DNA of 60,182 bases, the filler included. It is 5 parts of 5 records of this genome, joined end to end, with 100 filler letters (N's around TTAATTAATTAA, not from the genome) between each part and the next. Parts side by side here need not be neighbours in the genome. Positions count along the whole stretch, not along the records: positions 54,401 to 60,182 come from SRR31156797_629; 4 more parts are not named here. One strand, given 5' to 3'. The translations under genes were made by a program, and so were the position numbers. Below the pieces are notes generated by a model. It did no database searches. It was not told where the DNA came from and saw only the letters and a program-made list of their open reading frames with translations. Shown here piece after piece: positions 21,149 through 60,182 of this stretch; position 1 is the stretch's first letter, and every line of letters starts with the position of its first letter.

Positions 21149-21162
21149 TTATAGGGGGTATA

Positions 21163-23802: not shown

Positions 23803-23803
23803 C

Positions 23804-23851: not shown

Positions 23852-23910
23852 CTTTATAAATTTGATATTACCTCATTATTCTTAATTATATATAAATAAA
23901 ATATATAATT

Positions 23911-24837: not shown

Positions 24838-24937
24838 NNNNNNNNNNNNNNNNNNNNNNNNNNNNNNNNNNNNNNNNNNNNTTAATTAATTAANNNNNNN
24901 NNNNNNNNNNNNNNNNNNNNNNNNNNNNNNNNNNNNN
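24838..24937. other. Artificial contig spacer
   Basis: N44-TTAATTAATTAA-N44, stops in all six frames. Confidence 0.98.
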
Positions 24938-25413: not shown

Positions 25414-25414
25414 T

Positions 25415-26464: not shown

Positions 26465-26505
26465 TTTATACTTAACTTTCTAAATAATTTTTAAATTAAT
26501 ATAAA

Positions 26506-33776: not shown

Positions 33777-33777
33777 A

Positions 33778-34968: not shown

Positions 34969-34971
34969 AGA

Positions 34972-35952: not shown

Positions 35953-37117
35953 TATTATTTCCTTTATTTTTCTCAATTTCACTAACTACATATTTTGCAA
36001 AAGCAAAACTACAAGTAAATGCAGGGCTTACTGCATTTAAAACATGAGTTGATTTTTTATCATGTTCAAGTACAAAGTCTTGAACTAATTCATTTGTTTT
36101 TTTATTTAAAAGCTGTGCTCTTATTCCAGCAGGAATGGGAGTAAAGTCATCCCCAATATTTTTAACCATATCCTTTGCCTTTTGAATAAAGACATGTGAT
36201 TGATAATTTTTCATTTCTTCAATTGCTAGCTTTCTAAAGTTAAAACTATTTTGAATAAATAATTTACTTTCATAATAAAGTACTTCAATCATTTCTTTAA
36301 ATTTAAAATTACTTAAACCTTTATAATTTTCTCTCCAGAAAGCTGGAATAGCTGTAGGTCCTATTTTTATACTTCCATCTACAGTAATTGTATAATGAAC
36401 ACCTAAAAAAGGATTTGATAAGTTTGGTACAGGATATATATTTGTTTTAATATCACTTTTATTTGTTATATATTTTAAATAAATTCCTTTAAAAGGAAGT
36501 AAAGTATAACCTTTGGCTAAACCAAATTTTTGAGCAATTTTATCAGCATATACGCCTGCACAATTTATTAAATATTTATATTTAAAATTACAATCATCAA
36601 AAGAAGTATTAAAATAAAAACTTATTCCTTTTTCTTTTAAAACCTCTTTTAATTTATAACAAACTTCTTTTGGATCTACACTTGCAGTATTTGGAGAGAA
36701 AAGTGCTTTTTTATAAGTTTTAATGTTTGGATCAATTTTTGATACTTCTTCTTCACTTATAATTTTTGTTTCAACTCCATTTATCTCTGCTCTTTTTTGA
36801 AGTTCATATATTCCTTGAACTTCTTCTTCATTTTTTGCAACAACTATTTTTTGAGTCTCATTTACAAAAATATTATTTTTTTTACAAAACTCTTTCATAA
36901 GTCTATTTCCATCTACAGTAAATTTTGCTTTTAAACTATTTGCAGTATAGTAAAAACCAGCATGAAGGACTCCACTATTTCTTCCACTTGCATGTTTTGC
37001 TACATCTTCTTCTTTATCAATAATAGCTATTTTTAAAGAAGGTTCCTTTTCTTTCAGTTCATAGGCAATTGTCATACCTATAATACCAGAACCAACTATT
37101 AAATAATCATATGGCAT
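35945..37117 (-). CDS. lhgO: L-2-hydroxyglutarate oxidase
   Basis: GSGIIG, HASGRNSGVLHAGFYY, PFLGVH, GIRAQ, NAVSPAFT. Confidence 0.88.
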   Translation of the reverse strand: MPYDYLIVGSGIIGMTIAYELKEKEPSLKIAIIDKEEDVAKHASGRNSGVLHAGFYYTANSLKAKFTVDGNRLMKEFCKKNNIFVNETQKIVVAKNEEEVQGIYELQKRAEINGVETKIISEEEVSKIDPNIKTYKKALFSPNTASVDPKEVCYKLKEVLKEKGISFYFNTSFDDCNFKYKYLINCAGVYADKIAQKFGLAKGYTLLPFKGIYLKYITNKSDIKTNIYPVPNLSNPFLGVHYTITVDGSIKIGPTAIPAFWRENYKGLSNFKFKEMIEVLYYESKLFIQNSFNFRKLAIEEMKNYQSHVFIQKAKDMVKNIGDDFTPIPAGIRAQLLNKKTNELVQDFVLEHDKKSTHVLNAVSPAFTCSFAFAKYVVSEIEKNKGNNNE

Positions 37118-37120
37118 TTA

Positions 37121-38215
37121 CTAAATATTCTCAACAATATATTCTATTTCCTCATCTGATAAATAAGGATTCATTGGTAAACTCATAATCTCTTCTGAAA
37201 CTATTTCAGAGATAGGGAAATCACCTTTTTTATATCCTAGGTATTCAAAACATTCCTGAAGATGTAAAGGCATAGGATAATGTACTGCTGTCGGTATACC
37301 ATTCTCTTTTAGAGAGGATTGTATATTATCTCTATTTTTTACTCTTACAGAATATTGTGCCCAAGCGGAAGTTGCACTTTTATCAACAAAAGGTAAAATC
37401 AAATCTTTTCCAGATAAAGCTTTTGTATATTTACTTGCAACTTCTTGTCTTAGAGCTAAATCTTTTTCATAATATTTTAATTTTACATTTAATATTGCAG
37501 CTTGAATAGTATCAAGTCTTCCACCCATACCAATATATTTGTGATGATACCTTTTGCTTTGTCCATGAACTCTTAATGATTTCATTTTTTCTGCTAGTTC
37601 TTCATTATCAGTAAATACTGCTCCTCCATCACCAAAACATCCTAGTGGTTTAGCAGGAAAAAAAGAAGTAGTTGAAATATCTCCCCATGCAGAATCTGTT
37701 ATATTATTAAAAGTAGAACCAAAACTTTGCGCTCCATCAATTATCACTTTTAGATTATGTTTATTTGCAATATTTTGGATTTTTTCCATATCCGCTGGCT
37801 GACCATAAAGAGATACTGGAATAATTGCTCTTGTTTTAGAAGTGATTTTATCCTCTATTAAATCTGAATTGATATTATAAGTTCTGTCATCAATATCTAC
37901 AAAAACAGGAACTGCTCCTAAAAAAGCAATTGTTTCTGCCGTTGCTATAAATGTAAAAGGTGTAGTAATTATTTCATCACCAGGTTTTATATCAAGTGCC
38001 ATCATAGCAAGAAGTAAAGCATCTGTGCCAGAACTACATGAGATTGCATATTTAGCACCGGTAAACTCTTGAAGTGAGTTTTCCAATTGACTAATTTCCT
38101 CACCCATTATGTAGTTTGATTTATTTAAAACAGCATGTATAGCTTCATCTATTTCTGTTTTGTATAATTGGTACTGATCTTGTAGTTTTGCAAAATCTAT
38201 TTTACGACTCGTCAT
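37121..38215 (-). CDS. DegT-family aminotransferase, WbpE-like
   Basis: SGTDALL, DGAQSFG, SFFPAKPLGCFGDGG, adjacent to a WbpD-like gene. Confidence 0.9.
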   Translation of the reverse strand: MTSRKIDFAKLQDQYQLYKTEIDEAIHAVLNKSNYIMGEEISQLENSLQEFTGAKYAISCSSGTDALLLAMMALDIKPGDEIITTPFTFIATAETIAFLGAVPVFVDIDDRTYNINSDLIEDKITSKTRAIIPVSLYGQPADMEKIQNIANKHNLKVIIDGAQSFGSTFNNITDSAWGDISTTSFFPAKPLGCFGDGGAVFTDNEELAEKMKSLRVHGQSKRYHHKYIGMGGRLDTIQAAILNVKLKYYEKDLALRQEVASKYTKALSGKDLILPFVDKSATSAWAQYSVRVKNRDNIQSSLKENGIPTAVHYPMPLHLQECFEYLGYKKGDFPISEIVSEEIMSLPMNPYLSDEEIEYIVENI

Positions 38216-38262
38216 TTAGTGCCTCGCTTGCATTGTATTTTAATACTTATCACTAATTTTCC

Positions 38263-38796
38263 TTATTTATCTAGTAATGAAACTTCATTATTTTCTAATT
38301 TATATTTTGTATTATCAAAAGTATCTACGGCAATGTTATTTTCGTCAAACTCTAATCTATTTCCAGCAATAGAAACCCAACCAATTTGACGAGCAGGTAC
38401 TCCTACCATTAAGGCAAAATCTTTCACATCTTTATTTATTACAGAACCTGCTCCAACTAAAGCATATCTTCCAATAGTATTACCACAAACAACCGTTGCA
38501 TTTGCACCAATTGAGCAACCTTTTTTTAGAAGTGTTATTTTAAACTCTTCTTTACGAACTATAAATGATCTTGGGTTAATAACATTTGTAAAAACCATTG
38601 AAGGGCCAAGGAAGACGTCATCTTCTACTTCAACACCTTCATAAATAGAAATATTGTTTTGAACTTTAACACCATTTCCAATATTTACTTTTGGTCCAAC
38701 AACACAGTTTTGTCCAAAAGAACAATTATCTCCAATTGTTGTACCACTTAATACATGAGAGAAATGCCATATCTTAGTATCATTACCTATTTTTAC
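38263..38796 (-). CDS. WbpD-like hexapeptide N-acetyltransferase, 5'-truncated
   Basis: [29 protein letters not shown]; frame open to the contig edge. Confidence 0.9.
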
Positions 38797-38798
38797 AT

Positions 38799-38898
38799 NN
38801 NNNNNNNNNNNNNNNNNNNNNNNNNNNNNNNNNNNNNNNNNNTTAATTAATTAANNNNNNNNNNNNNNNNNNNNNNNNNNNNNNNNNNNNNNNNNNNN
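38799..38898. other. Artificial contig spacer
   Basis: N44-TTAATTAATTAA-N44. Confidence 0.98.
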
Positions 38899-38899
38899 A

Positions 38900-39844
38900 G
38901 CACGTAAAGAGAAAGATAAAAGCGCTGAGGTCGAAAAGGCAAAAGTACAGTGTCCTGAATGTGGCAGCCGCAACCTTGCACAGGACTACGAGAGAGCTGA
39001 ACTCGTATGTTCTGACTGTGGACTTGTGGTTGATGCAGAGTTTGTTGACGAAGGACCTGAATGGAGAGCCTTTGACCATGACCAGAGGATGAAGCGTTCC
39101 CGTGTGGGCGCACCAATGACCTACACAATACACGACAAAGGTCTGTCCACTATGATTGACTGGAGAAACCGTGATTCATACGGTAAATCCATTTCATCAA
39201 AGAACAGGGCGCAACTCTACAGGCTGAGAAAATGGCAACGTAGGATTAGAGTAAGTAACGCAACGGAAAGAAACCTTGCATTTGCACTGTCCGAACTTGA
39301 CCGTATGGCATCAGCCCTTGGTCTGCCAAGGACCGTGCGTGAGACTGCCGCAGTAGTATATAGGAAAGCAGTTGATAAGAATCTCATCCGTGGAAGAAGC
39401 ATTGAAGGAGTAGCAGCAGCAGCATTGTATGCAGCATGCCGCCAGTGCAGTGTTCCAAGAACACTTGACGAGATAGGAGAAGTATCAAGGGTAAGCAGGA
39501 AAGAAATTGGAAGAACATACCGTTTCATTTCAAGAGAGCTCTCCCTGAAACTTATGCCAACCTCACCAATAGATTATGTCCCAAGATTCTGCTCTGGACT
39601 TAACCTAAAAGGTGAAGTTCAGTCAAGAGGTGTTGAGATCTTAAGGCAGGCATCTGAGAAGGAACTTACCAGTGGCCGTGGACCAACCGGTGTGGCAGCA
39701 GCAGCGATTTACATTGCATCAATCCTTTGTGGAGAACGCCGCACACAGCGTGAGGTCGCCGATGTTGCAGGTGTGACAGAAGTCACAATCCGTAACAGGT
39801 ACAAGGAACTTGCAGAAGAGCTTGATATTGAGATTATTCTCTAA
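38900..39844 (+). CDS. tfb: Archaeal transcription initiation factor IIB, 5'-truncated
   Basis: Zn ribbon CPECG...CSDCG upstream of the ORF-track start; GPEWRAF; two cyclin repeats; [10 protein letters not shown]. Confidence 0.97.
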
Positions 39845-39951: not shown

Positions 39952-40563
39952 ATGTTAGAACTGCTTGAAATGCTAGCCATTGGGTTTGTCGTAGGAATGA
40001 CAGGAGCCCTTGTGCCCGGACCAATGCTTTTTGTGACAATAGACACATCCCTGAAAAGAGGATGGAAGGCAGGCCCCGAGGTATTCATAGGTCATGCTAT
40101 ACTTGAGTTTATGGTCTGTATGCTTATTATTTACGGTATTACGGCAGTAAGCAACAGCACGGTCATGGCAATATCCGTAATGGGTGGAGTTACTCTTGTT
40201 ATATTCGGCCTTATGACAATGAGAAGTGCAAAAGGTGCGGCAGACTCTATGCATGAACACGATAAAAGTACTTCAAATCCGGTACTTGCAGGGATTGTGA
40301 CATCAGCCTCAAATCCTTATTTCTGGCTATGGTGGCTGGCAGCTGGAAGCGCACTGTTACTGCGTGGGCTTGAGGTCAGCATACTTGCAGCCGTAGTATT
40401 TATGGTCGGACACTGGCTTGCAGACCTGGGATATTTTACTGTTGTATCATCATCTTTTAGCAAAGGAAAGAAGCTCATGTCCCCAAAAGTTTATGAAAGA
40501 ATACTGATGTCTTGTGGATTATTTCTTGTCCTGTTTGGGTCATGGTTCATTATAGGTACGTGA
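39952..40563 (+). CDS. LysE-family transporter
   Basis: PGP, GHAILE, SNPYFWLWW. Confidence 0.88.
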   Translation: MLELLEMLAIGFVVGMTGALVPGPMLFVTIDTSLKRGWKAGPEVFIGHAILEFMVCMLIIYGITAVSNSTVMAISVMGGVTLVIFGLMTMRSAKGAADSMHEHDKSTSNPVLAGIVTSASNPYFWLWWLAAGSALLLRGLEVSILAAVVFMVGHWLADLGYFTVVSSSFSKGKKLMSPKVYERILMSCGLFLVLFGSWFIIGT

Positions 40564-40565
40564 AG

Positions 40566-41567
40566 ATGAAGAGAAATTGTATCAAGGTTTTGAAGAAGAA
40601 GGGCGAACCAATACGCAGGTTACTGCTGGAAATGGACCTGCTTGATAATTCCGCACGCATTAGCTCAGAGGATGATTACCTCCTGCTTCCACTCACACGA
40701 AAACCGGAGGGAGCAGAACTTAATGAACTGCCTGGGGATTTTGAGCTTACGAACCACGACTTTGAGGAGCAGAAAGGACAACTGAAACTTGAAGACCTGC
40801 TGGATCTTGTACCCCATTTTGAAATAGTCGGAGATATTGCGCTTATTGAAGATGACGTTGCTGAACCTGAGAAAGTGGCAGATGCCATCATGAAGGTGAA
40901 GAAGAACGTAAAGACAGTGCTTGCAGCCCAGAGTCCGGTGGAGGGAGAGTTCAGGACACGCAGATTCAGGAATGTTGCAGGAGAAGACAGGACATCAACC
41001 ATCCACAGGGAATATGGTTCACGATATTATATTGATCTTGAGAGGGCGTATTTCACACCCCGGCTTGCAACTGAACGTTCACGCATACTTGAGCAGATCA
41101 AAGAGGGTGAAACTGTTGTAGACATGTTCGCAGGTGTGGGTCCATACAGCATCATGATGGCAAGAAAAAGCCCGGATATAAAGGTCATTGCTATTGACAA
41201 GAACCCCGATGCTGTAGAATTCCTGCGCCGCAATGTTGAGCTTAATTCCACAGACAATGTAGAGGCAATAGAAGGCGATGCCAACATCGAGGCTGAAAAA
41301 TTCACTGGTGTTGCAGACCATGTGATCATGAACCTGCCCCACAATGCAAATGAATTCCTTGATGCTGCGGTTAAGCTATGCGCACCCGGAGCAATTATCC
41401 ATTATTATGACATCACGCCTGAAGACGACCTTTTTGACAGCTCTCTGAAGCTGATCGAAGAAGCGGCTAAAAGAGCTGGCAGGGCAATTGAAGTTGTTGA
41501 AAACAGGACTGTACGCTCATACGCCCCGCACCAATTTAATGTCTGCATTGAAATTAGGGTATTATAA
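40566..41567 (+). CDS. trm5: tRNA (guanine37-N1)-methyltransferase, Trm5/Met-10 family
   Basis: VGDIA, GEFRTR, YFTPRLATER, DMFAGVGP, MNLP. Confidence 0.9.
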   Translation: MKRNCIKVLKKKGEPIRRLLLEMDLLDNSARISSEDDYLLLPLTRKPEGAELNELPGDFELTNHDFEEQKGQLKLEDLLDLVPHFEIVGDIALIEDDVAEPEKVADAIMKVKKNVKTVLAAQSPVEGEFRTRRFRNVAGEDRTSTIHREYGSRYYIDLERAYFTPRLATERSRILEQIKEGETVVDMFAGVGPYSIMMARKSPDIKVIAIDKNPDAVEFLRRNVELNSTDNVEAIEGDANIEAEKFTGVADHVIMNLPHNANEFLDAAVKLCAPGAIIHYYDITPEDDLFDSSLKLIEEAAKRAGRAIEVVENRTVRSYAPHQFNVCIEIRVL

Positions 41568-41629: not shown

Positions 41630-41701
41630 GCCTCTGTGGCTTAGCGGTATAGCGGCTGATTCGTAATCAGCAGGCCGAGGGTTCGAATCTCTCCAGGGGC
41701 T
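41630..41701 (+). tRNA. tRNA-Thr(CGT)
   Basis: Cloverleaf: acceptor GCCTCTG/CAGGGGC, anticodon arm GCTGA-TTCGTAA-TCAGC, T-loop TTCGAAT; BRE/TATA-like CGAAATTATTAAAT upstream; CCA not encoded. Confidence 0.95.
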
Positions 41702-42362: not shown

Positions 42363-42896
42363 TTAACTCGTCGAAGGCTTTACGAGTTTAAACAACTGAG
42401 AAAATGTTATGCCATCTCGGACTTCCGTTTGTATTTCTTTAAATCCATTTCTTAAATAAAAATCCATCACTTTGTCCTTATCTTTATTTGCTTCAACCCA
42501 GACGACTCTTCCACCCACACATTGAATTGCATTTATTATCGAACCCAATGCATTTTCCAAAATATCATCTCCCTTGATGTTATCTTTAAAATCGTCGTTT
42601 TTTGCTAATTGAGCAATAAGGTAGGCAGGTATGACTCGCTCACCTTCACTTTTAAGTCTTAATTTCCTCCTATGTTTTGCAGTGACCTTAGTGGTTTTGT
42701 TAATATGTAGTATTTTAAGAGCCAAACCGTAATACCCCAAAACACACAAATTAGTATTATCACTCATATCTTCATCGATTATAAAATAAGATATGCACGT
42801 TCCAGCTTTTTCAGCATATATAGAATTGTTTCTGATAAAGTTTTCAATATCTATTTCTTTTTCACAGGAAAAATTATTAATCATATTATCAATCAA
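42363..42896 (-). CDS. GNAT acetyltransferase, toxin-like
   Basis: FSC...DIENF, GYY.LA.K, PAYLIAQLAKN, GGRVVWVE, FY..NGF; frame extends to about 42956. Confidence 0.8.
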   Translation of the reverse strand: MIDNMINNFSCEKEIDIENFIRNNSIYAEKAGTCISYFIIDEDMSDNTNLCVLGYYGLALKILHINKTTKVTAKHRRKLRLKSEGERVIPAYLIAQLAKNDDFKDNIKGDDILENALGSIINAIQCVGGRVVWVEANKDKDKVMDFYLRNGFKEIQTEVRDGITFSQLFKLVKPSTS

Positions 42897-43008
42897 ATCT
42901 ACATTATTGATATTTCGATAAAGTTCATTTAATGTGTATGCTGTTTGGCTGATTATACCACCCTAAAAAATATAAAAAAATAGAGTCGAGAATTATATTA
43001 TTTGCCAC

Positions 43009-43152
43009 TTACTCATCATCAAATGATGGACTTTTTCCGCCGAGACCATGTTTCTCGAAGTGGTTAAACTTATTATCTCCTGTTAATATCCGAAACTGTG
43101 AAGAAGTTGTATTCCTCATAAATAAGTTTCCACTTTTATGTGTGTTATTCAT
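43009..43152 (-). CDS. Small peptide downstream of the protease (not in ORF track)
   Basis: 47 aa MNNTHKSGNLF...GLGGKSPSFDDE; RBS AGGTGG. Confidence 0.45.
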   Translation of the reverse strand: MNNTHKSGNLFMRNTTSSQFRILTGDNKFNHFEKHGLGGKSPSFDDE

Positions 43153-43191
43153 GTTGCCCACCTACAAGTCTATCATATTAAAAAGTTTTCA

Positions 43192-44271
43192 TTAATTTCC
43201 TACTTTCCAATAATCTATCTCTTTTTTATCGTATATCTTATTATCTATAAATATTGGCTGTCCTGAAAATATTGCAGGTATTATACTATCAGGAGGAATA
43301 TATACTGCTGGTTGTCCATTATTATTTATGAGTTTTGACTCATCTCCAAAATCCATTTTTTCCCATGTCTGTTCGATTATATGCATATGCTGGGAAACAG
43401 TTGATTCTATATATTTAATTGGGATTTCAACTTTATTTCCATCTATTGGAAGTTTGTCAGAATACGGAATTTGAAGGTTCATATCTTTCTCATAATCTAA
43501 ATACAAATCCCACATTAGTTCCTCTAAGCCACTTGGCATTTCATCAGTACTCAGTACTTTTAGTCCAATAGACCTTGCTTCCTCCCTATTTACATGATGT
43601 CCATGATAGTATAGTTTTTCAACTAGAGTAGATGTTATACTTTCTATTTTTTCTTTTTCATGCTCAGGAGACATATGTAATGAAAGTAATTTATTCGAAT
43701 CTTCTCTACATTTAATGTAATGTCGATAGGCATTACCTAATGCAAGTGGTCTAATATCATTAGTCAATTGTGTGAACGCCTGCGTAAGATTATTTGTATC
43801 ATTTATTCCAAATTTGTCTTGAATAAATGAAATATATCCAGCCATATCTTCAACCGAAATACCAACCAACTTGTTATCAATAATGGGGTTAAATGGATTT
43901 GATACAGTAGGATCAATTGGACCTAATGTACCCATTTTTGCCATGACAATCTCATCTGCTCCCAACGCTATAGATGTAGCACAGCTAAACGCATTATATG
44001 GCACCAATACTGAGAATTTAGTTGAGTGTTCTCTTATTAAATTATCTAATGGCCAAGCGACTGTTGCTACTCCTCCATTACTATAAATAAATAAATCAAT
44101 ATTCTTCCCTTCAAATTCCCTACATTTTAAGTGGTCGTAAAAATATCTTAAATCACCAGGCTCAATCATAGTATTAATCTTATCTCTTGTCGAGATAACG
44201 TATGTTATAACTTTTGAGTTACGAATTTCTTCTATTTCCTTGATAATTTGAACTCTATCTTCATATGCCAT
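43192..44271 (-). CDS. ClpP-class serine protease (SDH/SppA-like)
   Basis: DLFIYSNGG, VP..AFSCATSIALGADEIVM, LGPIDP, HGH. Confidence 0.88.
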   Translation of the reverse strand: MAYEDRVQIIKEIEEIRNSKVITYVISTRDKINTMIEPGDLRYFYDHLKCREFEGKNIDLFIYSNGGVATVAWPLDNLIREHSTKFSVLVPYNAFSCATSIALGADEIVMAKMGTLGPIDPTVSNPFNPIIDNKLVGISVEDMAGYISFIQDKFGINDTNNLTQAFTQLTNDIRPLALGNAYRHYIKCREDSNKLLSLHMSPEHEKEKIESITSTLVEKLYYHGHHVNREEARSIGLKVLSTDEMPSGLEELMWDLYLDYEKDMNLQIPYSDKLPIDGNKVEIPIKYIESTVSQHMHIIEQTWEKMDFGDESKLINNNGQPAVYIPPDSIIPAIFSGQPIFIDNKIYDKKEIDYWKVGN

Positions 44272-44430
44272 GTATATTTGAGAGTAATCAATGATTGTTA
44301 AATATTTTGATGAAGATCTGAAAAATATATGTATAATTGTATTCGAACAGATTCCCCATATTCCCTCATCACATTTTCTTTTTTCTTATGCCAAACTCCC
44401 TTACATCCAACTTAGACATTATGATACCCG

Positions 44431-45012
44431 ATGATAGCTGCTGAATTCCATGAACTTTTCTCAAAAGGTCATCATACAGAAGTCTGCTTGAATCTGAAGG
44501 GAGCTAATGTTGACCAAGCAGTACATTTCTTGATGCAGGTCTGCACCAACAGGCTGCACAAAGTTGAAGAGCTTCTTGTAGAAGGAGGCAAGATACTGGA
44601 CCTGTCAAGTGAAGCCACAGGTGAGGAAACCTATTACCTGCTATCTGTAACAATAAAAGAAAAAGAAGGCCTGACACAGATCATGGTGGGAGCAGTATCA
44701 GACAAGCCCTATGGCCTGCAGGGTTTTTTGTATGAGGTCGTTTCCGACCTCAGATCCCACGTGAGAAACTTGGAAGGTGTAAAGGAAGTCAGCGTCATCC
44801 GGGAAGAACGGAGTTCCAGCTTTTATATAGGAGGCGATGCCATCTTTGTACGTTCTCCCTTTTCCATTGGTGACATCCCTACTTCACATAAAGGGCAAAA
44901 TGCTAGAAATAATTTTGAAAATGAGTGGGAACAGCAGAAACTAGGGGATTTGGAAGGAAACACAAAAAGAGGCTTTCCTGAAAGCTCGGATAGAACCCTG
45001 AAAACTTCGTAG
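44431..45012 (+). CDS. Hypothetical protein
   Basis: 193-aa ORF with host-like GC content. Confidence 0.55.
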   Translation: MIAAEFHELFSKGHHTEVCLNLKGANVDQAVHFLMQVCTNRLHKVEELLVEGGKILDLSSEATGEETYYLLSVTIKEKEGLTQIMVGAVSDKPYGLQGFLYEVVSDLRSHVRNLEGVKEVSVIREERSSSFYIGGDAIFVRSPFSIGDIPTSHKGQNARNNFENEWEQQKLGDLEGNTKRGFPESSDRTLKTS

Positions 45013-45159
45013 GAGTTCTATTAAAAAATGTGATCTATTTTTTTAGTTAGCCTTTGCCAGCAATACGATCTGAATTAGTCATTTATAGCAAAATTTATAT
45101 ATCCCACCATGAACTATTTTCGATAGTTACTTTTTGCAATAACTATTGGGTGCTGGAAA

Positions 45160-45832
45160 ATGGATGAAATTGACAAACGGGATCTAAGTGAAAGGGATAT
45201 TTGTACTAAATTCATCACACCAGCTATTGACAATGCAGGATGGAACATTCATAAACAAGTACGTGAAGAAGTTCACCTCACTAACGGAAGAGTAATTGTC
45301 AGTGAAAAAGTTGTATCAAGAGCTAAGAATAAACGTGCTGATTATATCCTATATTATAAGCCTAACATTCCCATTGCTGTTGTTGAAGCAAAGAGGAATA
45401 TTTTTGAAGTCGGTGAAGGGATGCAGCAAGCTCTTGGTTATGCCAAAATGGTAGATGTTCCTTTTGCTTTCAGTTCTAATGGAGATGCATTTTTGTTCCA
45501 TGACCGTTCAGGGAATTCAAGCCAAGTAGAACAGGAACTATCCCTTGATCAGTTCCCCTCACCTGGTGAACTTTGGGAATCCTATTGCAAATGGAAAGGT
45601 ATTGATGATAAAGATCATCAAGTAATTGAGCAAGACTACTATACTGATTTTACAGGAAAAGTTCCACGATATTATCAACTAAATGCCATTAATAGGACAA
45701 TTGATGCAATTTCTAAAGGACAAAACAGAATACTGCTGGTTATGGCTACTGGAACCGGTAAGACATATACAGCGTTTCAAATCATCTGGAGATTGTGGAA
45801 ATCCAAAGCTAAAAAGAGAATACTTTTCCTTG
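45160..45832 (+). CDS. hsdR: Type I restriction enzyme R subunit, truncated
   Basis: SERDICTKFITPAI, ADYIL...VEAK nuclease, RYYQ, MATGTGKT. Confidence 0.93.
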
Positions 45833-45932
45833 NNNNNNNNNNNNNNNNNNNNNNNNNNNNNNNNNNNNNNNNNNNNTTAATTAATTAANNNNNNNNNNNN
45901 NNNNNNNNNNNNNNNNNNNNNNNNNNNNNNNN
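45833..45932. other. Artificial contig spacer
   Basis: N44-TTAATTAATTAA-N44. Confidence 0.98.
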
Positions 45933-46147: not shown

Positions 46148-47023
46148 TTAAACCAGGCCTCCCATTCTTCGGTAACGGGCCGGGGTACTTCCTGTAAACT
46201 TTTGAAATACCCTGTAAAAATAGGGTAGGTTGTTAAAACCGGTTTTGTCACAAATTTCAAGTTGGGTTAAACTGGTTGTTAATAATAATATTTGAGCCTT
46301 CTCAATTTTTTTCATATTAATGTATTTTAAAGGAAGCATTCCAGTGGTTTTTTTAAAAATACGTGTGAAATGATCATCGGAATAGTGTGTGATTTCAGCC
46401 AGTGTTTCCAGCCTTATTTCTTTATCAAGATTCGAGTTTATGTACTGAAAAACTTTCCTTAAATTAGAGAATTGTTGCAGATTTTTCTGTTCTACTTTGG
46501 TTTCAACAATGAATCGGGAAAGCAATTGTTTTAGAATTCCTATCGTTTCAAGGTACGACTTACTTTCACACGAAAACTCAATAATATTTTTCCAATTGTC
46601 TTTTTCATAAGTCCCCGGATCACTTTGTTTCAATTTTTTATCCTGGTTTAAACTGATTATCCTTTCAAATAAGCTTTTATCAAAGGGTAGGGCTGTAACT
46701 TCATTTTTTATTAACAATAAATCGTAAATGTTTAATCCTGTAGGGAATTGGTTCGTAAAGTGAATGTAAAATTGAGATAATGATTCGGTACAATGATAGC
46801 TGCATTGCACAAAGCTGGGAATCATGTACAAATAACCTGGTTTTAACTGCAACATTCGGTTGTTCGGTAATATGTATCCTTCACCACTGGTTATCAGGTA
46901 AATCCTTGAAAACGGGCTCAGGACATTTGAGTAATTCCATTCTTGCCCTAGTTCGGTATATCCTGTGTTAAGCAGGTTTAACTGCAGTTCATTAATCAGG
47001 TTCGATGGAAGATGAGTGTTCAT
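46148..47023 (-). CDS. AraC-family transcriptional regulator
   Basis: Cupin N-terminus, C-terminal GF....YF.RVF.K.TG.TP..YR. Confidence 0.93.
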   Translation of the reverse strand: MNTHLPSNLINELQLNLLNTGYTELGQEWNYSNVLSPFSRIYLITSGEGYILPNNRMLQLKPGYLYMIPSFVQCSYHCTESLSQFYIHFTNQFPTGLNIYDLLLIKNEVTALPFDKSLFERIISLNQDKKLKQSDPGTYEKDNWKNIIEFSCESKSYLETIGILKQLLSRFIVETKVEQKNLQQFSNLRKVFQYINSNLDKEIRLETLAEITHYSDDHFTRIFKKTTGMLPLKYINMKKIEKAQILLLTTSLTQLEICDKTGFNNLPYFYRVFQKFTGSTPARYRRMGGLV

Positions 47024-53910: not shown

Positions 53911-54300
53911 TTATTTTTTTGCCCACGCTGTTCCAAGTGGTAAAACTGTTTTCCCTGCAACATCATTAATAATTATTGCCGCCATCATATACCAGGCTGC
54001 TAATGCACAGAATATTAATTCGTAACCGGCTACTACATTCATTTTTGGAAATCCAAAGTGTCCGATAACTAAAAGAATAAATCCAATTTCCAGAAGAATA
54101 AATGTTATGGCCATTGCTTTATGAACATAAAATGAAGCAATCAAAAGAATACAGGTATACGAAGCCCAGGCAACCAGGTACCAACCCACATCGGTATGCG
54201 AAGCAGCATAAATGTTAAAATGATTTAGTAACCAGATAATTCCAAGACCGATCCAGAATGAACCATAGGCAACAAAGGCACTAAAACCAAAATTGTTACC
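53911..54300 (-). CDS. Acetate uptake transporter (SatP/GPR1/FUN34), 5'-truncated
   Basis: GNNFGFSAFVAYGSFW, AWY...A.IIN..G..VLPLG. Confidence 0.85.
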   Translation of the reverse strand, partial: GNNFGFSAFVAYGSFWIGLGIIWLLNHFNIYAASHTDVGWYLVAWASYTCILLIASFYVHKAMAITFILLEIGFILLVIGHFGFPKMNVVAGYELIFCALAAWYMMAAIIINDVAGKTVLPLGTAWAKK

Positions 54301-54400
54301 NNNNNNNNNNNNNNNNNNNNNNNNNNNNNNNNNNNNNNNNNNNNTTAATTAATTAANNNNNNNNNNNNNNNNNNNNNNNNNNNNNNNNNNNNNNNNNNNN
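54301..54400. other. Artificial contig spacer
   Basis: N44-TTAATTAATTAA-N44. Confidence 0.98.
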
Positions 54401-54764
54401 CAAAAGGGATTTTGTCTTCCGTTTACATAAAGTGATATTATATCAAAAAATTGCTTTTATTACTGAGGTAATTTAATAGCCTTTTGGGGGCTTTTCCCCC
54501 ACACCCCCCCCGTCTCTTCCAAAAAGCCAAAAATCAAGTCCAAGCTTATTAATAAAAATATTCTACAGGATAAAGTATATATGATGGCTGTTTGATATTG
54601 AAACATTCATAAAATTTAAATACAAATATATGCTAATCAATAGAATTAATAATAAATAATATAATTATGTATACTTTAAGGAAATAATTTAATGTAATAT
54701 ATTGCATATAAACATGAATTATGGTAAATTATTAAAGAATGTATATTAAGAGTAGAGGTCAACC

Positions 54765-55898
54765 ATGCCACATTGCAAGAAACAAATGTTATCGTTTTTT
54801 TTAACTACTAAGTGTAATTTATGTTGTGTATATTGTTATAATGCAAAAGAAAGAAATAAGTTAGAAGAAAAAACACTTCCATTAGAAATAGCTAAAAGTG
54901 GAATAGATTATTTTTTTAATAATTTTGAAAGCAGGCATATTAGATTTTACGGACCTGGCGAACCAACGCAAGAATTCGAATTAATGACAGAAATTGTGAA
55001 TTATGCGAAAGAAAAAGGTGGTCAAGAAGTAACAGTAGAAATACAAACAAATGGTGTATTTGATGAGAATGTTAGGAAATGGATGTTAGAGAATATGAAT
55101 ATTTTGTGGCTATCATTTGATGGACCTCCAGACATTCAGAATTTTAATAGACCTATTAATCCTAAATACAGTGTTTTTGGAAAATCATCTTCAGATGTTA
55201 TTGAAAAAAATGTAAGGTGGCTAAATAATCATAGTGATAAAAATAAACTCATGGTGGGAGCAAGAGTAACAATTTCCAATAAGAATGTTGACAGGCAAAT
55301 TGAAATGGTTGATTATTTTAAAAGCTTAGGTATAAGATATATTTGGACAGATCCAATTTTTCAGAGTGTTGAAAAAATACCTGTATGTGATGATAAAGAA
55401 AAACTTGCATCATATGATTTTGATATGGATAAATACGTTGAAAATTATTTGAAAGCATATAAATATGCAAAGAATAAAGATATTTTTTACGGTAGTATTT
55501 TCACATGTAATTTTGATGGGAAAACAAATATACATTGTAGATGTTGCACTCCTGTTCCACATCTTACTCCAGATGGATATGTATCTGCGTGTGATATGGT
55601 TGTATTGGGAGAGGAGGCATATCATATGGATTGTTTTATATATGGGAAATGGGATGAAAGAGATAATAAATTTATTTTTAATAATGAAAAAATAAAAGCT
55701 TTACGAGATAGAAACATTGATAATATGATTCATTGTAAAACATGTGAAGCAAGATTTTATTGTGGAGGCTATTGTTTAGGAGAAGTGGTCAATGAAACTG
55801 GGAAATTACAAGGGCAAAAAGTAATTGCATGCAAAGCAATAAAAAAAATATTTAAAGAAATTGGCCCATGCAATACGTTTGAATATTTACATCCATAG
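54765..55898 (+). CDS. Radical SAM protein with SPASM domain
   Basis: CNLCCVYC, GPGEPT, QTNG, SFDG, DGYVSACD, CKTCEARFYCGGYC...C. Confidence 0.92.
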   Translation: MPHCKKQMLSFFLTTKCNLCCVYCYNAKERNKLEEKTLPLEIAKSGIDYFFNNFESRHIRFYGPGEPTQEFELMTEIVNYAKEKGGQEVTVEIQTNGVFDENVRKWMLENMNILWLSFDGPPDIQNFNRPINPKYSVFGKSSSDVIEKNVRWLNNHSDKNKLMVGARVTISNKNVDRQIEMVDYFKSLGIRYIWTDPIFQSVEKIPVCDDKEKLASYDFDMDKYVENYLKAYKYAKNKDIFYGSIFTCNFDGKTNIHCRCCTPVPHLTPDGYVSACDMVVLGEEAYHMDCFIYGKWDERDNKFIFNNEKIKALRDRNIDNMIHCKTCEARFYCGGYCLGEVVNETGKLQGQKVIACKAIKKIFKEIGPCNTFEYLHP

Positions 55899-55920
55899 AA
55901 TTATAAAAAATTAATAAAAT

Positions 55921-56742
55921 TTGGAGGCTAAAATGAAAAAGACCGCATTGATTACTGGAGTGTCGAAGAACATTGGTAAAAGTATTTGCAGGCAATTTGT
56001 TAACAAGGGATTTAAAGTTATTGGAACATATAAAAGTATGCTCGATGATTTAAAAAAAAGAGAAGAATTTAAGAAAGAATTCCCAGATGTAGATTTATAT
56101 AAAGTAAATCTATCAAATCAAGAGAATGTCACTAAATTTATAAGTGATGTGAAGAAATATAGGTTCGATGTAATTGTAAATAATGCAGGAATGTTTAATA
56201 TGATGCCGGATGGTTCGGTGAGGAATGAATTTTATGATTTTAATTTGCAAGAGTTTACTGATCTGTTTAACTGTGATTTGATATCAGTTGCTCGTATTTG
56301 TATCGAATTAAAGGAAAATATTAATGAAGGGGGCAGTATTGTAAATATTGCTAGTGGAGCTGCTACCAATGGTGCATTTGCTTCTATTTCTTATAATTCT
56401 GCAAAGGCAGCTCTCGTTAATTTAACACAAAGCTTATCAAATAGTTTTTATTATTATAAAAAAATTCGTGTTAACAGTGTATCTCCAGGTTGGGTAGCAG
56501 GAGAAGGTGGAGAGATGAATACTGATGGAGATGACCCTTTCATGAAAAATGTAGCAAGAGTAACTCCTATGGGACGAAATGGAAAACCTAGTGAAATTGC
56601 AGATGTTGTATATTACTTAACTAGCAATGAAGCATCTTTTATAACAGGTGCCGATATTGCGGTTGACGGTGGTTATTCGCATTTCGATGTTATATATTAC
56701 GAAGAAGCTACAGGAAAAACATTATTAAGCAAAGAAGATTAG
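55921..56742 (+). CDS. Short-chain dehydrogenase/reductase
   Basis: TGVSKNIG, VNNAG, YNSAK, IRVNSVSPG, VDGG. Confidence 0.93.
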   Translation: MEAKMKKTALITGVSKNIGKSICRQFVNKGFKVIGTYKSMLDDLKKREEFKKEFPDVDLYKVNLSNQENVTKFISDVKKYRFDVIVNNAGMFNMMPDGSVRNEFYDFNLQEFTDLFNCDLISVARICIELKENINEGGSIVNIASGAATNGAFASISYNSAKAALVNLTQSLSNSFYYYKKIRVNSVSPGWVAGEGGEMNTDGDDPFMKNVARVTPMGRNGKPSEIADVVYYLTSNEASFITGADIAVDGGYSHFDVIYYEEATGKTLLSKED

Positions 56743-56752
56743 AGGAAACTAT

Positions 56753-57685
56753 ATGACTTTTTCAAAAGCGAAATATGTCTTTTTATTAGTTATTCAATGT
56801 GCAATATTCGGATTTAGTTTTGTTGTAATAAAGAAGCTTATAGAATTAGGGTGCTCTACATTTATGCTCATGAGTATAAGATTTTTTATTGGAGTTGTTT
56901 TCTTGGTTATGATTAATAAAATTATTTCTAGTAAAAAAAATATAATCAGTTCACAAAATACAAAGGATGAACACTTTAAACGAGAAGCTATATATGGAAT
57001 CCTAGCTGGCACAATTTTATTTGTAGCATTTGCATTACAAACATTTGGTGCTAGATATACAACCCCAGCAAAGAATGGTTTACTTACAGGTCTGTTCGTA
57101 GTTCTTGTTCCAATATTATCTATGATGCTTAAAAAAAAGTTTTCGATAAAATCGATTGTAGTAGCATTTATTTGCTTTATTGGTGTATATATCGTTTCAA
57201 ATGCTAGTCTGCAAGTTATGGAAATGAATATAGGTGATTTTCTGACAATACTTTGTGGATTTATGTTTGCAATTCATTTTGTAGTTCTAGAGAAATTCGC
57301 ATTAAATGAAGATATTAATGTATTTAGATTTACTGTTATACAATTACTGATGGTTACTTTGATATCATTAACAGTCTCGTTATTATTCGAAAATAATAAT
57401 TATGGTTCAGTTGAATGGGGAAAAACTATCGGCTGGTTTTTGTTTATAGGAGCTATATCGACTTCAGTTACTTATATTATTCAAACAGTAGTACAAGCAA
57501 AATTAACAGCAAATACTGTTTCGGTTATATCATGTACTGAATCTGTTTTTGCTATTATAATTTCCTTATTACTAGGATATGAAATATTTTCAAATAATCT
57601 TTTATTTGGTTCAATTATAATTATCTCTTCTATGATATATGCCTCATTAATGGAAAAGGAGAAAAAAAATGAATATGAAAACTAA
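56753..57685 (+). CDS. EamA/DMT transporter
   Basis: About 10 TM helices, IFGFSFV..K, GDFLT, ESVFA. Confidence 0.9.
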   Translation: MTFSKAKYVFLLVIQCAIFGFSFVVIKKLIELGCSTFMLMSIRFFIGVVFLVMINKIISSKKNIISSQNTKDEHFKREAIYGILAGTILFVAFALQTFGARYTTPAKNGLLTGLFVVLVPILSMMLKKKFSIKSIVVAFICFIGVYIVSNASLQVMEMNIGDFLTILCGFMFAIHFVVLEKFALNEDINVFRFTVIQLLMVTLISLTVSLLFENNNYGSVEWGKTIGWFLFIGAISTSVTYIIQTVVQAKLTANTVSVISCTESVFAIIISLLLGYEIFSNNLLFGSIIIISSMIYASLMEKEKKNEYEN

Positions 57686-58517
57686 TAGAGAGATAAAAAT
57701 AAAAGTACTTAATCCTACGACAAATACTGCAAGTATTACAATACTACCTATTATAATAACTAATCTTTTTATTTTTACTTTAGTTTACCAAAATATAGAT
57801 AAAATATCTAAATTAGTATTAGGAATAATTATTCTTGGTGCACTAATAATATCTCTTATCATATTGAGCATTTTTTCTAAAGATTCTTATATAAACATAA
57901 AAAAAGTAGAAGAAGAAAAACTGATGAAATTATGCCGAAAATGTGCAATGGATGACACGAAGCATGCATTAGCAGAATATGGTCTGATTACACTGGATAG
58001 ATTGCTTTTAAAAGAAAGAGAATTGAAAAATAATAAAAAACCAAAATCATGTATAGTATATAACTATACTACATTGGATACTACTTTTGATAATTGTTCA
58101 AACAGTGATTTGTCTAATAATAACGACAATATAATTAGAATTATACAAAATAATATTAAATCTGGTATTAAATATATAATATTGTATACAAATAAAGAGT
58201 TTGTTGAAACCGAATTTAATAATGATTTATATGGGAAAAAAAATCTTTTTTATGTAGAAAATGATGAGTTATATAAAAACGCCTATTTTGATATATTAAT
58301 TTATAAAACTCCTCAACGTATTGAAGGATTTGTCACTGTGAATTTCTCATCGACAGATGCTCATTGTGAAACATGTGAGCATAAAAATAAATGTGATATT
58401 AAAAATGCTAATTTATTTTATCAAGAATTATCTCCTCATGCAACAAATGTTTTAATAAAAAAAATAAATAAATTAACTAATAAACGAGGAAATCAAAATG
58501 AAAATACAAGGCAATAA
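57669..58517 (+). CDS. 2TM protein with unknown soluble domain (paralog 1)
   Basis: Two N-terminal TM helices; NNIKSGIKY, FDILIY; CETC...C. Confidence 0.75.
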   Translation: MNMKTNREIKIKVLNPTTNTASITILPIIITNLFIFTLVYQNIDKISKLVLGIIILGALIISLIILSIFSKDSYINIKKVEEEKLMKLCRKCAMDDTKHALAEYGLITLDRLLLKERELKNNKKPKSCIVYNYTTLDTTFDNCSNSDLSNNNDNIIRIIQNNIKSGIKYIILYTNKEFVETEFNNDLYGKKNLFYVENDELYKNAYFDILIYKTPQRIEGFVTVNFSSTDAHCETCEHKNKCDIKNANLFYQELSPHATNVLIKKINKLTNKRGNQNENTRQ

Positions 58518-59364
58518 GATTCCTATTAGTGTAATAAATATAATTTTACTTGTTTGCTCAATTTTTTTCGCACTAATAATATCAAATTTCATTGGAGAAG
58601 GCGTACCTACCAATCATTATTGGCTAGCTGCATTTATAATTACTATAATAATCATATTATTATATTATAGTATATTGGGTATACTACTTTTATATGAAAG
58701 TAAGGGGTTGGAAGTTGATGAATCATTCAAAGATATACAAATGTGTCTTTATAGGGAATGGATATGTTGTGGTAGTGTAAATATAGATCAAGTGAAAAAA
58801 AACTTTGATTTCAGTCCTAGTCAACCTTTAATCAAGGAACTGGAGGATAAGTTTTCTTTAGTTCAACAAAAAAATATCCTTGAACGTGAAATATCTTTTT
58901 TTAAAGATAATGGTAGAGCCATATGGATTGTCTCTTCAAATCTGAAATCCGAAATAGAAGGTGGAGCAGTAAATATTGTAGGGAATAACTTGAAAAAATC
59001 GATAGTTTATAATGAATTTTATTCGGAAATTGATTCAGATAATAGAAAGAATGCGGATGCAATAAGAAATGTAACTATTTTGCAAACAAAATATAGTAAT
59101 AGCAGTAATATAAATTTCATTGCATATAAAAAACCATATGGAGGGCTAGACGGTTTTATACTAGATTTGTTTGGTATTGCGATTTATGAATATAAAGATA
59201 ATACTATTACAGCATATTTTTCAATTAGAAGTTCGATTATGAATAAAAAACCAATTTATTTTAAGATGCCTGAATGCATGGGTGCAAGATACTTCCTAAT
59301 GCTTTTAGAAATAAAAAATAAATATGAATATGAAAATAAACCAGATATAGAAATGGCTGAGTGA
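58498..59364 (+). CDS. 2TM protein with unknown soluble domain (paralog 2)
   Basis: Two N-terminal TM helices; IWIVS, NNLKKSIVY, FGIAIY. Confidence 0.75.
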   Translation: MKIQGNKIPISVINIILLVCSIFFALIISNFIGEGVPTNHYWLAAFIITIIIILLYYSILGILLLYESKGLEVDESFKDIQMCLYREWICCGSVNIDQVKKNFDFSPSQPLIKELEDKFSLVQQKNILEREISFFKDNGRAIWIVSSNLKSEIEGGAVNIVGNNLKKSIVYNEFYSEIDSDNRKNADAIRNVTILQTKYSNSSNINFIAYKKPYGGLDGFILDLFGIAIYEYKDNTITAYFSIRSSIMNKKPIYFKMPECMGARYFLMLLEIKNKYEYENKPDIEMAE

Positions 59365-59373
59365 GGTGACTAT

Positions 59374-59880
59374 ATGAAATTAATCTATAAAAAAGTTCCA
59401 TTTGAAGATTGGGATATGCTATTTGAAGTAATTAATAAAGTGTTATTCGAGATGGAAAGAAAAGAATTTTTCATTCCATATACAACAGAAGAATTAGAAA
59501 AAATATTTGATGAATCGTATGCTTTTTTGCATGGTGCTTATGATGGAGACAAACTTGTTGGTATAGCTCAACTATATGTGGATCAGGAAATGTTGAAGGA
59601 GTATGCTGAAATTCTGAACATATCTAATGAAGCAGTATGTGAATTAGGAGGGAATTTAGTTTTATCTGAATATAGAGGCTTGGGCATTATGACATCTTTG
59701 ATAAAAATTCAATTAGACTTAGCTTTTGAAAAAAAATATAATTATGTTATTGCAATGGCACATCCTGATAATATAGGCAGTATAAAAGCGATAGAAAGAC
59801 TTGGTTTAAATTTCGTAAGAAGAGAAGTTTTAAATAATGATTTTCTTAGAAATATCTATATGAAAGAGCTTTGCACATAA
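59374..59880 (+). CDS. GNAT N-acetyltransferase
   Basis: V..EYRGLGI, AHPDN..S......LG; RBS GAGGTG. Confidence 0.9.
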   Translation: MKLIYKKVPFEDWDMLFEVINKVLFEMERKEFFIPYTTEELEKIFDESYAFLHGAYDGDKLVGIAQLYVDQEMLKEYAEILNISNEAVCELGGNLVLSEYRGLGIMTSLIKIQLDLAFEKKYNYVIAMAHPDNIGSIKAIERLGLNFVRREVLNNDFLRNIYMKELCT

Positions 59881-60151
59881 TAATGTAAACTATATATAGA
59901 ATTCGATTTTTAGTGATAGCTACTCTGATATAAATTTATCATCTCTACAACTAGTAATTAAAATATTTAATAACTAGTTACTAAATGTGATAAGATGCAA
60001 TGTAGCCAAATGTAGCCATTTCTAAATATCACCTAATAGAATCACTAATAAACAACATAAATAAAAGAGCTAATCAGCTCTTTTTCTATTAATTAATATA
60101 TCTAATGCAAACATATGTATGCATTTTCGTTCAATGTATGTGTACTCATAA

Positions 60152-60176
60152 AGTTCGACTCCCCTCGCCTCCACCA
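60152..60176 (+). other. att core: displaced 3' end of tmRNA (ssrA)
   Basis: AGTTCGACTCCCCTCGCCTCCACCA, identical to the reverse complement of 17936-17960; no tmRNA body upstream. Confidence 0.8.
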
Positions 60177-60182
60177 TATTTA

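Follow-up and report, generated by a model that had tools for sequence, protein, structure and literature searches.

Which molecule does an operon built around a radical SAM enzyme act upon, and to what end, when the neighbouring genes encode a transporter and two membrane proteins that resemble sensors? This question is raised by a six-gene operon in a stretch of 60,182 nt (the window), in which five contigs are joined; the operon lies on its own contig, at positions 54,401-60,182 (SRR31156797_629), separate from the remaining four. Its six open reading frames (ORFs), all on the plus strand between 54,765 and 59,880, encode in order a radical SAM/SPASM enzyme (rSAM), a short-chain dehydrogenase/reductase (SDR), an EamA-family transporter, two proteins with paired N-terminal transmembrane (2TM) helices, here called TM1 and TM2, and a GNAT acetyltransferase. 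The intergenic gaps are, in order, 22, 10, -17, -20 and 9 nt, and the GC fraction is 0.25-0.31 across 54,001-60,000, in agreement with an earlier note on this DNA that had described co-directional, tightly packed or overlapping genes in AT-rich sequence. We find that this cassette is real, mobile and modular, and that it is without description in the model libraries and papers searched. Indeed, no PADLOC, NCBIfam or Pfam model covers the six proteins as a set, and the gene set is not described in the papers searched, a search that did not extend to subscription journals and supplements; the earlier statement that no described system has this composition is supported on both counts.

We surveyed one genome for each of 185,579 species by a pattern-based scan, which makes the locus count a lower bound, and obtained 62 rSAM loci from Bacillota, Bacteroidota, Chloroflexota, Chlorobiota, Melainabacteria and one bin labelled archaeal. 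ORFs at these loci were called, clustered and labelled by Pfam and by hidden Markov models (HMMs) built from the clusters. Four loci without a full rSAM ORF and six with less than 1.5 kb downstream and no partner were left out, and in the 52 evaluable loci partners were sought from three ORFs upstream to seven downstream of the rSAM. A partner was present at 44 of them. A 2TM protein of the TM1/TM2 superfamily was found at 32 loci and a PAS/coiled-coil protein at 13, of which 11 also have a membrane protein of ~130 aa; a single locus carries both partner types. The co-occurrence of rSAM and 2TM genes, on which the earlier note had made its proposal depend, thus extends well beyond the window. 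Among enzymatic partners the SDR is commonest (36/52), and SET-domain, agmatine-deiminase-type and GNAT genes occur at 19, 13 and 12 of the 52 loci, respectively. The eight partner-less loci comprise L059 and a monophyletic clade of seven loci (52-56% identity). Similarly, a reverse search of metagenome contigs with the TM1 alignment gave three loci, one with the order rSAM-SDR-EamA-TM1like-TM2like, in which the TM2-like protein is fused to GNAT (L064), one with rSAM-SDR-EamA-TM1like running to the contig end (L065), and one with TM1like-TM2like (L066). The gene order of the window, rSAM-SDR-EamA-TM1(-TM2), was therefore recovered twice, in L064 and L065, and this recurrence of linkage and order argues for a genuine cassette that is under selection.

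Among themselves the partner clades show a relationship at the profile level only, in contrast to the rSAM, the invariant core of the cassette, whose identity across phyla is 52-81%. A tree of 66 rSAM sequences, which does not follow taxonomy, has the partner types intermingled; well-supported branches force at least six partner changes for PAS, at least five for clade c6, and at least three each for clades c5 and c8, and rSAM sister pairs with 99% support carry different partners. In the L014 member of the PAS-type partners, the structural model contains a PAS domain and long helices (target-normalised TM-scores of ~0.75-0.83). The place beside the enzyme is thus taken by two different folds, both classical for small-ligand sensing: a PAS fold and a fold of the phospholipase D (PLD) type. 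A TIR label for the c4 partner family was tried and rejected, as TIR_2 matches two of its 13 members (L002, L003) and PAS matches nine. A single locus covers L022 and L025, where a pair of divergent cassette copies stands tail to tail, with rSAM-c38-c39 on one strand and rSAM-SDR-c6-SDR on the other.

The PLD-type assignment comes from TM1, a rare protein (28 representatives at E<=0.001 out of 1.84 billion). It consists of two N-terminal transmembrane helices, a CxxC motif, a cytoplasmic domain and a second Cys pair, and its AlphaFold2 (AF2) model (mean confidence score, pLDDT, 82) has two long N-terminal helices followed by an alpha/beta domain. Residues ~98-282 of this model matched PLD-superfamily chains in VIA with Z-scores of 10.0, 9.8, 9.4, 9.3, 9.2 and 8.8 (background quoted by the tool, 7-8); the matches between Z 10.0 and 8.7 are the polyphosphate kinase (PPK) C-domain, SauUSI, Zucchini, a PLD, NucT and TrmBL2. 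Foldseek placed TrmBL2 at the top for the same domain (E 1.1e-3), followed by PPK, NucT, PLD1/2/3, Tdp1 and FAM83. The catalytic HKD motif, HxK(x)4D, is absent, with no invariant or near-invariant His or Lys in the TM1-family alignment, and a His-x-Lys motif is likewise not conserved in clades c5, c6 and c8 or in TM2. On the strength of this model, the TM1 cytoplasmic domain appears to be a PLD-like fold without HKD, as in TrmB/TrmBL2. The C-terminal domain of TrmB/TrmBL2 and DUF1669 of FAM83 have the same character (VIA Z 8.7 for TrmBL2 and 8.2 for FAM83B), although TM1 differs from them in having no helix-turn-helix domain, in its membrane anchor, in an extra CxxC...CxnC motif and in the lack of detectable sequence similarity. 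PLD folds without HKD, for example the sugar-binding domain of TrmB, serve as ligand-binding or scaffolding modules, and the earlier description of TM1 and TM2 as sensor-like fits both this fold and its alternation with PAS.

The residues E116, N162, Y169, C236, C242 and Y251 are invariant in the TM1 family, and C89 and C92 nearly so; partner clades c5 and c6 are without the Cys motifs. The four TM1 cysteines may form a zinc site, in a loop of low pLDDT. For TM2, a word-based search of 1109 candidates gave no relatives, and the ESM Atlas returned unnamed clusters only, with DUF5919 and DUF6879 as leads below 0.9. The two proteins had been proposed to be paralogs, and here the similarity stands at the profile level (hhalign 89.6%; TM1-family HMM, E 4.8e-5) but not in BLASTP (E 0.25); indeed, all 2TM clades found beside the rSAM are interlinked by hhalign at 80-96%. 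Fusions were seen of EamA to a TM1-like protein (P0132), of a TM2-like protein to a C-terminal GNAT (L064), and of SET to GNAT. The first two of these suggest, at the level of gene architecture, a membrane-bound enzyme and transport assembly as much as free-standing sensors.

The rSAM itself belongs to a well-defined family. A search among 2511 candidates returned 813 proteins at E<=0.001, so that the family has at least 813 detectable members; the best 120 relatives are 61-81% identical and all of 364-391 aa, the closest being P0001 (81%) and P0002 (78%). The CxxxCxxC motif that had been read from residue 17 is C17/C21/C24, which is invariant in the family alignment, and PF04055 matches at 44.7 bits against a cut-off of 29.5. 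The SPASM seven-Cys motif has the form CX9-15GX4C ... CX2CX5CX3C ... C, and the corresponding residues of the rSAM (C261-x9-G271-x4-C276, C324-x2-C327-x5-C333-x3-C337, and C356) are all invariant; the Pfam SPASM model has no match to the window rSAM at E<=0.01, and the enzyme aligns over its full length to SPASM maturase profiles. Its best profile match is to NCBIfam PapB (NF047865; 108.6 against a cut-off of 340), ahead of SCIFF (90.3 against 425), HxsB (76.8 bits against 370), anaerobic sulfatase-maturating enzyme (anSME; TIGR03942, 66.9 bits against 349.45) and viperin (NF038283; 40.2 bits against 180, residues 8-122 only). PADLOC gave a weak match of the rSAM to prokaryotic viperin (pVip) and none for the other five proteins. 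The nearest solved structure is CteB (PDB 5WGG; E 3.1e-17), in an alignment that begins at CteB residue 97. The preceding part of CteB, which we take to be its RiPP recognition element (RRE; RiPP, ribosomally synthesised and post-translationally modified peptide), has no counterpart in the rSAM, whose radical SAM motif begins already at residue 17, and no RRE was found on the enzyme. The earlier note was correct in this respect, but its conclusion that the enzyme is not of the RiPP type does not follow, since the models of PapB, anSME, DynA, YhhB and AmcB align from their own positions 4-12 and are likewise without an N-terminal extension. Therefore, the absent RRE does not exclude a peptide or protein substrate.

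Gene spacing also bears on the substrate. Gaps within the operons are -56 to +85 nt (the exception, 800 nt, is in L030, where the SDR is degraded), an upstream ORF ends 7-56 nt before the rSAM in many loci, and no small ORF near the cassettes is common to more than three loci. A dedicated linked precursor is, on this sequence evidence, unlikely, because the operon gaps are tiny, the upstream ORFs are close and the small ORFs recur in three loci at most. The 364 nt upstream of the window rSAM also hold no recognisable precursor peptide gene, and the earlier claim that none is present is upheld in that the operons leave no space for one and are not accompanied by a conserved small ORF. In 12 loci the region upstream of the rSAM was searched with Rfam and gave no riboswitch. 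In the partner-less clade, a short conserved Cys-containing ORF (22-31 aa) lies 283-413 nt upstream of the rSAM at three of the seven loci (L052, ~4116; L053, ~7588; L061, ~7716), with PnuC- and Gate-domain transporter genes nearby; a precursor peptide is one candidate explanation and a conserved RNA element another, and no Rfam family is found there.

Other features point toward a small molecule. For example, the deiminase gene of L002 passes the NCBIfam cut-off for agmatine deiminase (451.8 against 381.8), and transporters recur, with EamA in the window, L064, L065, L007 and the P0132 fusion, and PnuC- and Gate-domain proteins by the partner-less clade. The plasmid collection contained rSAM relatives of at most 39% identity only, one of which, 39% identical and on a Clostridium perfringens plasmid, is part of an MFS-SDR-AsnB-AMP-binding-rSAM-rSAM cluster; a tblastn search of the phage collection gave no match. 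It is from the L002 deiminase, the recurrent transporters, this plasmid cluster and the fact that both partner folds are ligand sensors that we infer a small-molecule substrate.

The position of the operon within its contig shows how it travels. The earlier note had placed its end about 270 nt before an attachment (att) core of transfer-messenger RNA (tmRNA) type, and the 24-nt core begins 272 nt past the GNAT stop. This 24-mer was found at 66 viral-contig loci, and ARAGORN, run on 60 of them, showed that it coincides exactly with the 3′ end of a standard tmRNA gene at 14 and lies inside a permuted tmRNA at eight, with overlap of tRNA genes at 0/60. Rfam aligns it, weakly (E 0.078), to the 3′ end of the tmRNA model. 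No tmRNA body and no integrase gene were found in the stretch, in which tRNA-Thr is the sole Rfam match. Both copies of the core in the window are att-type repeats because neither has a tmRNA body, and both look like the att repeats that mark the distal end of tmRNA-integrated elements. The interpretation of the operon as island cargo accordingly stands, as the core is a tmRNA 3′ end with flanking island DNA and the six genes are the last cargo before the repeat. At the other, minus-strand copy, a hairpin and a T run follow the core and inovirus-like genes lie on the opposite side. This inovirus-like segment (17,936-24,837; 27-31% GC) abuts the core and includes a Phage_CRI replication protein (18,150-19,208) and a Zot-domain protein (22,969-23,802), which points to integration of a filamentous phage at a tmRNA gene.

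Elsewhere, integrative elements spread the cassette among anaerobes of gut, rumen and sediment. We scanned the flanks of 35 loci (149 of 198 non-redundant flank ORFs of at least 120 aa) and found mobile-element genes, namely recombinases, a relaxase, transposases and plasmid genes, beside the cassette at 11. Two IMG/VR contigs carry cassettes, one by a Mu-like transposase and repressors and the other by a serine integrase, a transposase and HicB. Known defence systems are directly beside the cassette at 6/35 loci, namely GajA and GajB of Gabija (L014), TIR-APAZ with a prokaryotic Argonaute (pAgo; L008), a CBASS 2TM effector (L010), AbiEii (L003), a type II restriction-modification system (L035) and PDC-S57 (L022). 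The TIR protein of L008 was considered and rejected as a cassette member, being part of the separate TIR-APAZ/pAgo pair, and three sets of PADLOC matches were discounted as generic (FtsH to IetA, a group II intron reverse transcriptase to DRT/retron, and a pyruvate formate-lyase-activase-like rSAM to pVip). A defence system within ~8 kb at 6/35 loci gives the impression of a frequency well above that for a random gene. The parallel to defence systems drawn in the earlier note stands on context only, that of these six loci and the 11 with mobile genes, and we regard a defence role as plausible, though unproven. In L031 and L032 the cassette is located within a polysaccharide-synthesis locus. 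At L032, Polysacc_synt_2/DegT pairs lie both upstream and downstream of the cassette, and Bac_transf genes flank it in L031 and L032, an arrangement that would fit insertion into a capsule locus after duplication or recombination of that locus.

The remaining contigs of the window give no host identity, and the assembly looks like a mixed bin. The five contigs are joined by four artificial linkers of the form N44-TTAATTAATTAA-N44, so genes on either side of a joint are not neighbours in any genome. One contig carries TFIIB (TFB; 39,026-39,844) and a Trm5/TYW2-type methyltransferase (40,512-41,567), which are archaeal types, and a different one an AraC-family regulator (46,148-47,023) of bacterial type. 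On the archaeal-looking contig, AT-rich cargo (42,363-45,832) with an SDH-type ClpP-like protease (43,192-44,271) adjoins tRNA-Thr (41,630-41,701), and the N-terminal part of a putative type I restriction HsdR-like helicase, as read by eye, runs into the linker at 45,833. The first contig starts with an SPP1-type portal and large terminase (108-2,860, minus strand), which adds a tailed-phage region to the contig of the inovirus-like segment; just outside the att core of that contig are a DUF4062-domain protein (16,199-17,209, minus strand) and, beside it, a small unassigned ORF (17,311-17,730). DUF4062 is often found in conflict systems. Finally, 24,938-38,798 (minus strand; 24-31% GC) is a long co-directional sugar-modification cluster of a formyltransferase, a WbmS-like deacetylase, an ATP-grasp protein, a metallophosphoesterase, epimerases, a methyltransferase, AsnB, two DegT aminotransferases and an FAD oxidoreductase.

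Features of the operon contig, att cores and artificial joints in the window, with positions counted along the whole stretch
Feature	Position	Strand	Remarks
Upstream region, 364 nt, AT-rich	54401-54764	+	Short unconserved ORFs only; contig edge at 54401
Radical SAM/SPASM enzyme (rSAM), 377 aa	54765-55898	+	Pfam Radical_SAM; invariant cassette core
SDR oxidoreductase, classical	55921-56742	+	Pfam adh_short_C2; TGxxxGxG-type motif, YxxxK
EamA/DMT-family transporter	56753-57685	+	Pfam EamA
TM1, two N-terminal TM helices and cytoplasmic domain	57669-58517	+	Without Pfam family
TM2, TM1-like layout	58498-59364	+	Without Pfam family; distant TM1 paralog
GNAT acetyltransferase	59374-59880	+	Pfam GNAT
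Terminator-like hairpin, then T run	60063-60084	+	Operon end
24-nt att core GTTCGACTCCCCTCGCCTCCACCA	60153-60176	+	Identical to tmRNA gene 3′ ends; island DNA to left
Second exact core copy	17936-17959	-	Other contig; 0 copies expected by chance
Artificial joints	24838-24937, 38799-38898, 45833-45932, 54301-54400		TTAATTAATTAA cores start at 24882, 38843, 45877, 54345

Comparison with known systems places the cassette near several of them. The PapB and CteB (SCIFF) maturases share with the cassette rSAM the CxxxCxxC motif and the full set of SPASM cysteines, but the rSAM falls below the PapB cut-off, has no counterpart of the CteB N-terminal region and has no linked precursor gene. The likeness to anSME is one of size (~370 aa), a radical SAM motif near residue 15, the lack of an RRE and the SPASM domain; the substrate of anSME is a folded protein, often encoded nearby, whereas the cassette contains no sulfatase and its rSAM scores far below the anSME cut-off of 349. 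The product of pVip is a small antiviral nucleotide, and we know of no pVip with a SPASM domain; only the N-terminal radical SAM core of the cassette enzyme matches pVip (40 bits). Similarly, the effectors of CBASS, Pycsar and type II Thoeris resemble TM1 and TM2 in having two N-terminal transmembrane helices, a cytoplasmic ligand-binding domain and a conserved enzyme encoded next to them, and effectors are swapped between related operons in those systems as in the cassette. Their 2TM effectors act by ligand-driven membrane disruption, and to our knowledge they do not occur as EamA or GNAT fusions. They differ from the cassette in that the cytoplasmic domain of TM1 is PLD-like; none of the signature synthases (CD-NTase, cyclase, TIR synthase) is found in the cassette, and PADLOC effector models miss both TM1 and TM2. 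In pairs of an rSAM and an NAD(P)-reductase that tailor sugars and aminoglycosides, for example AprD4 and AprD3, an rSAM is followed by an SDR-type reductase that acts on the carbonyl made by the rSAM; the rSAM and SDR of the cassette would form a comparable pair, and the remaining cassette genes are unrelated.

HXS (HxsA-D) is an anti-phage system whose rSAM enzymes mature a protein effector (PMC13128918). Its enzymes are rSAM/SPASM proteins like that of the cassette, which weakly matches the HxsB profile, but the cassette differs in having no HxsA-like protein with His-Xaa-Ser repeats, no second rSAM, and another set of partners. Ophion is an rSAM defence system with PHP and phosphoribosyltransferase (PRTase) partners (bioRxiv 10.1101/2025.09.30.679545); the central enzyme of pVip and of Ophion is likewise a radical SAM protein, but the cassette has neither PHP nor PRTase genes. 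Kaur et al. 2020 (PMC7159879) describe other SPASM systems, with peptide substrates. Judged by analogy, the cassette would be most like systems that join a conserved enzyme to exchangeable ligand-gated effectors, or like viperin chemical defence, but it belongs to none of these.

Our best reading of the cassette, to which we give a probability of roughly 0.45, is a mobile small-molecule system with ligand-binding membrane partners that is probably related to conflict. In this scheme the rSAM, usually with the SDR, would make a modified small molecule from a common cellular metabolite, probably one that carries a guanidino group or an amine. The GNAT might acetylate this molecule, for tailoring or for neutralising it, with the SET-domain methyltransferase and the agmatine-deiminase-type enzyme of other variants taking related jobs, and EamA would carry it across the membrane. 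TM1 and TM2, each anchored by two helices, could then bind the molecule through their cytoplasmic TrmB-like domains of HKD-less PLD-like fold and so form a ligand-responsive membrane component, either for gating or regulating transport or as a membrane effector. As the terminal cargo of what looks like an element integrated at a tmRNA gene, the cassette most likely would serve in conflict, be it defence against phage or mobile elements or antagonism between microbes. Of this scheme, the gene content, conservation, linkage, fusions, fold and mobility are observed, and the small-molecule substrate, the binding of a ligand and the role in conflict are inferred from them. A more specific version, a new modular class of immune system in which rSAM/SPASM and SDR make a non-nucleotide signal or toxin that is read by exchangeable receptors, seems to us rather doubtful. 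It is just as tentative that these receptors would be either 2TM proteins whose sensor is an HKD-less PLD fold or PAS proteins together with the small membrane protein, and we would give no more weight to the suggestion that the GNAT, SET and deiminase enzymes and the EamA exporter tune or clear the molecule.

Several observations weigh against the small-molecule proposal. The nearest characterised relatives of the rSAM (PapB, SCIFF/CteB, QhpD, HxsB, anSME) are all modifiers of peptides or proteins, SET and GNAT domains often modify proteins, and the agmatine-deiminase-type genes of L013 (375.4) and L014 (315.7) fall below the cut-off that L002 passes. Neither EamA nor any tailoring enzyme is universal, and at least six loci have the rSAM and a 2TM protein as their sole recognisable cassette genes. 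The PLD-like assignment comes from a single AF2 model, with Z ~10 moderately above background. As to conflict, the flank scan covered 149 of the 198 ORFs from 35 loci, many loci are flanked by housekeeping genes, and the defence and mobile-gene numbers are plain counts, not enrichments over a genomic baseline.

Several of these observations feed the strongest of the alternatives, protein maturation, in which the SPASM enzyme would modify the co-encoded TM1/TM2 or PAS/coiled-coil partner and the SDR, GNAT, SET and deiminase enzymes would add further modifications. We consider it a credible minority view, on the unlikely side. In its favour, some loci have just the rSAM and a 2TM protein as recognisable cassette genes, the nearest profiles and the nearest solved structure are those of peptide or protein maturases, TM1 and TM2 have conserved Cys motifs, and SET and GNAT are common protein modifiers. 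There are parallels in HxsB/HxsC maturing the HxsA effector or in anSME maturing sulfatases, and HXS offers a precedent for an rSAM-matured defence effector (PMC13128918). However, an enzyme that is 52-81% identical would have to act on partners of different folds, PLD-like and PAS, with no common short motif visible, the Cys motifs are missing from clades c5 and c6, the L002 deiminase scores as a small-molecule enzyme, and transporters recur. A RiPP pathway whose precursor peptide is unlinked, past the contig edge or missed is very unlikely in our view, even though the PapB ranthipeptide maturase is the best NCBIfam match, the contig edge is just 364 nt upstream of the window rSAM, and the lanthipeptide-tailoring ElxO is among the closer solved relatives of the SDR, a generic match. 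The PapB score is under a third of its cut-off, the spacing of upstream genes and within operons is as tight as described above and small ORFs are conserved in three loci at most, no RRE, protease or typical RiPP exporter is present, and maturases that act on variable peptides would not usually be as conserved across phyla as this enzyme.

A metabolic or envelope function without any role in conflict, in which the cassette salvages or modifies a metabolite, for instance a polyamine-, agmatine-, nucleoside- or sugar-like compound, for its host as an ordinary accessory trait on mobile DNA, strikes us as improbable. Transporters and an agmatine-deiminase-type enzyme are typical of metabolism, PnuC/Gate transport genes lie by the partner-less clade, and L007, L018, L020, L031/L032 and L033 have housekeeping or polysaccharide-synthesis neighbours. 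Such a function would hardly lead one to expect the repeated partner swaps on an rSAM tree that does not follow taxonomy, a family as rare as 62 loci (a lower bound) in one genome each of 185,579 species, defence systems directly adjacent at 6/35 loci, or the location of cassettes in transposable elements and at the ends of islands. An assembly artefact, or unrelated genes that came together by chance, which the concatenation of contigs from a seemingly mixed bin (TFIIB and Trm5 on one, the AraC regulator on another) might bring to mind, has a negligible likelihood, as the six genes lie in one contig with overlapping or near-abutting ORFs and their order recurs in independent contigs. Logan contigs of one DNA run are also identical to the stretch, 62% of whose sampled words are present in that run at a depth of ~3-4; the listed pieces are short and low in depth, and one extends 741 nt past the end of the stretch. 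This run is probably the source sample, so the match is not independent support; no RNA run was listed as containing the stretch.

A small-molecule system with ligand-binding membrane partners, if that is what the cassette proves to be, would extend to radical SAM/SPASM chemistry the range of enzymes by which effector or signal molecules are made in mobile conflict systems, and would bring with it a new type of receptor, a membrane-anchored HKD-less PLD-fold domain exchangeable with PAS. Should protein maturation be correct instead, the idea of rSAM-matured defence effectors seen in HXS would be extended to membrane proteins of anaerobes. In either case, an rSAM family of at least 813 members, without functional annotation in the libraries scanned, is joined to a cassette of two to six genes that is small enough for direct testing.

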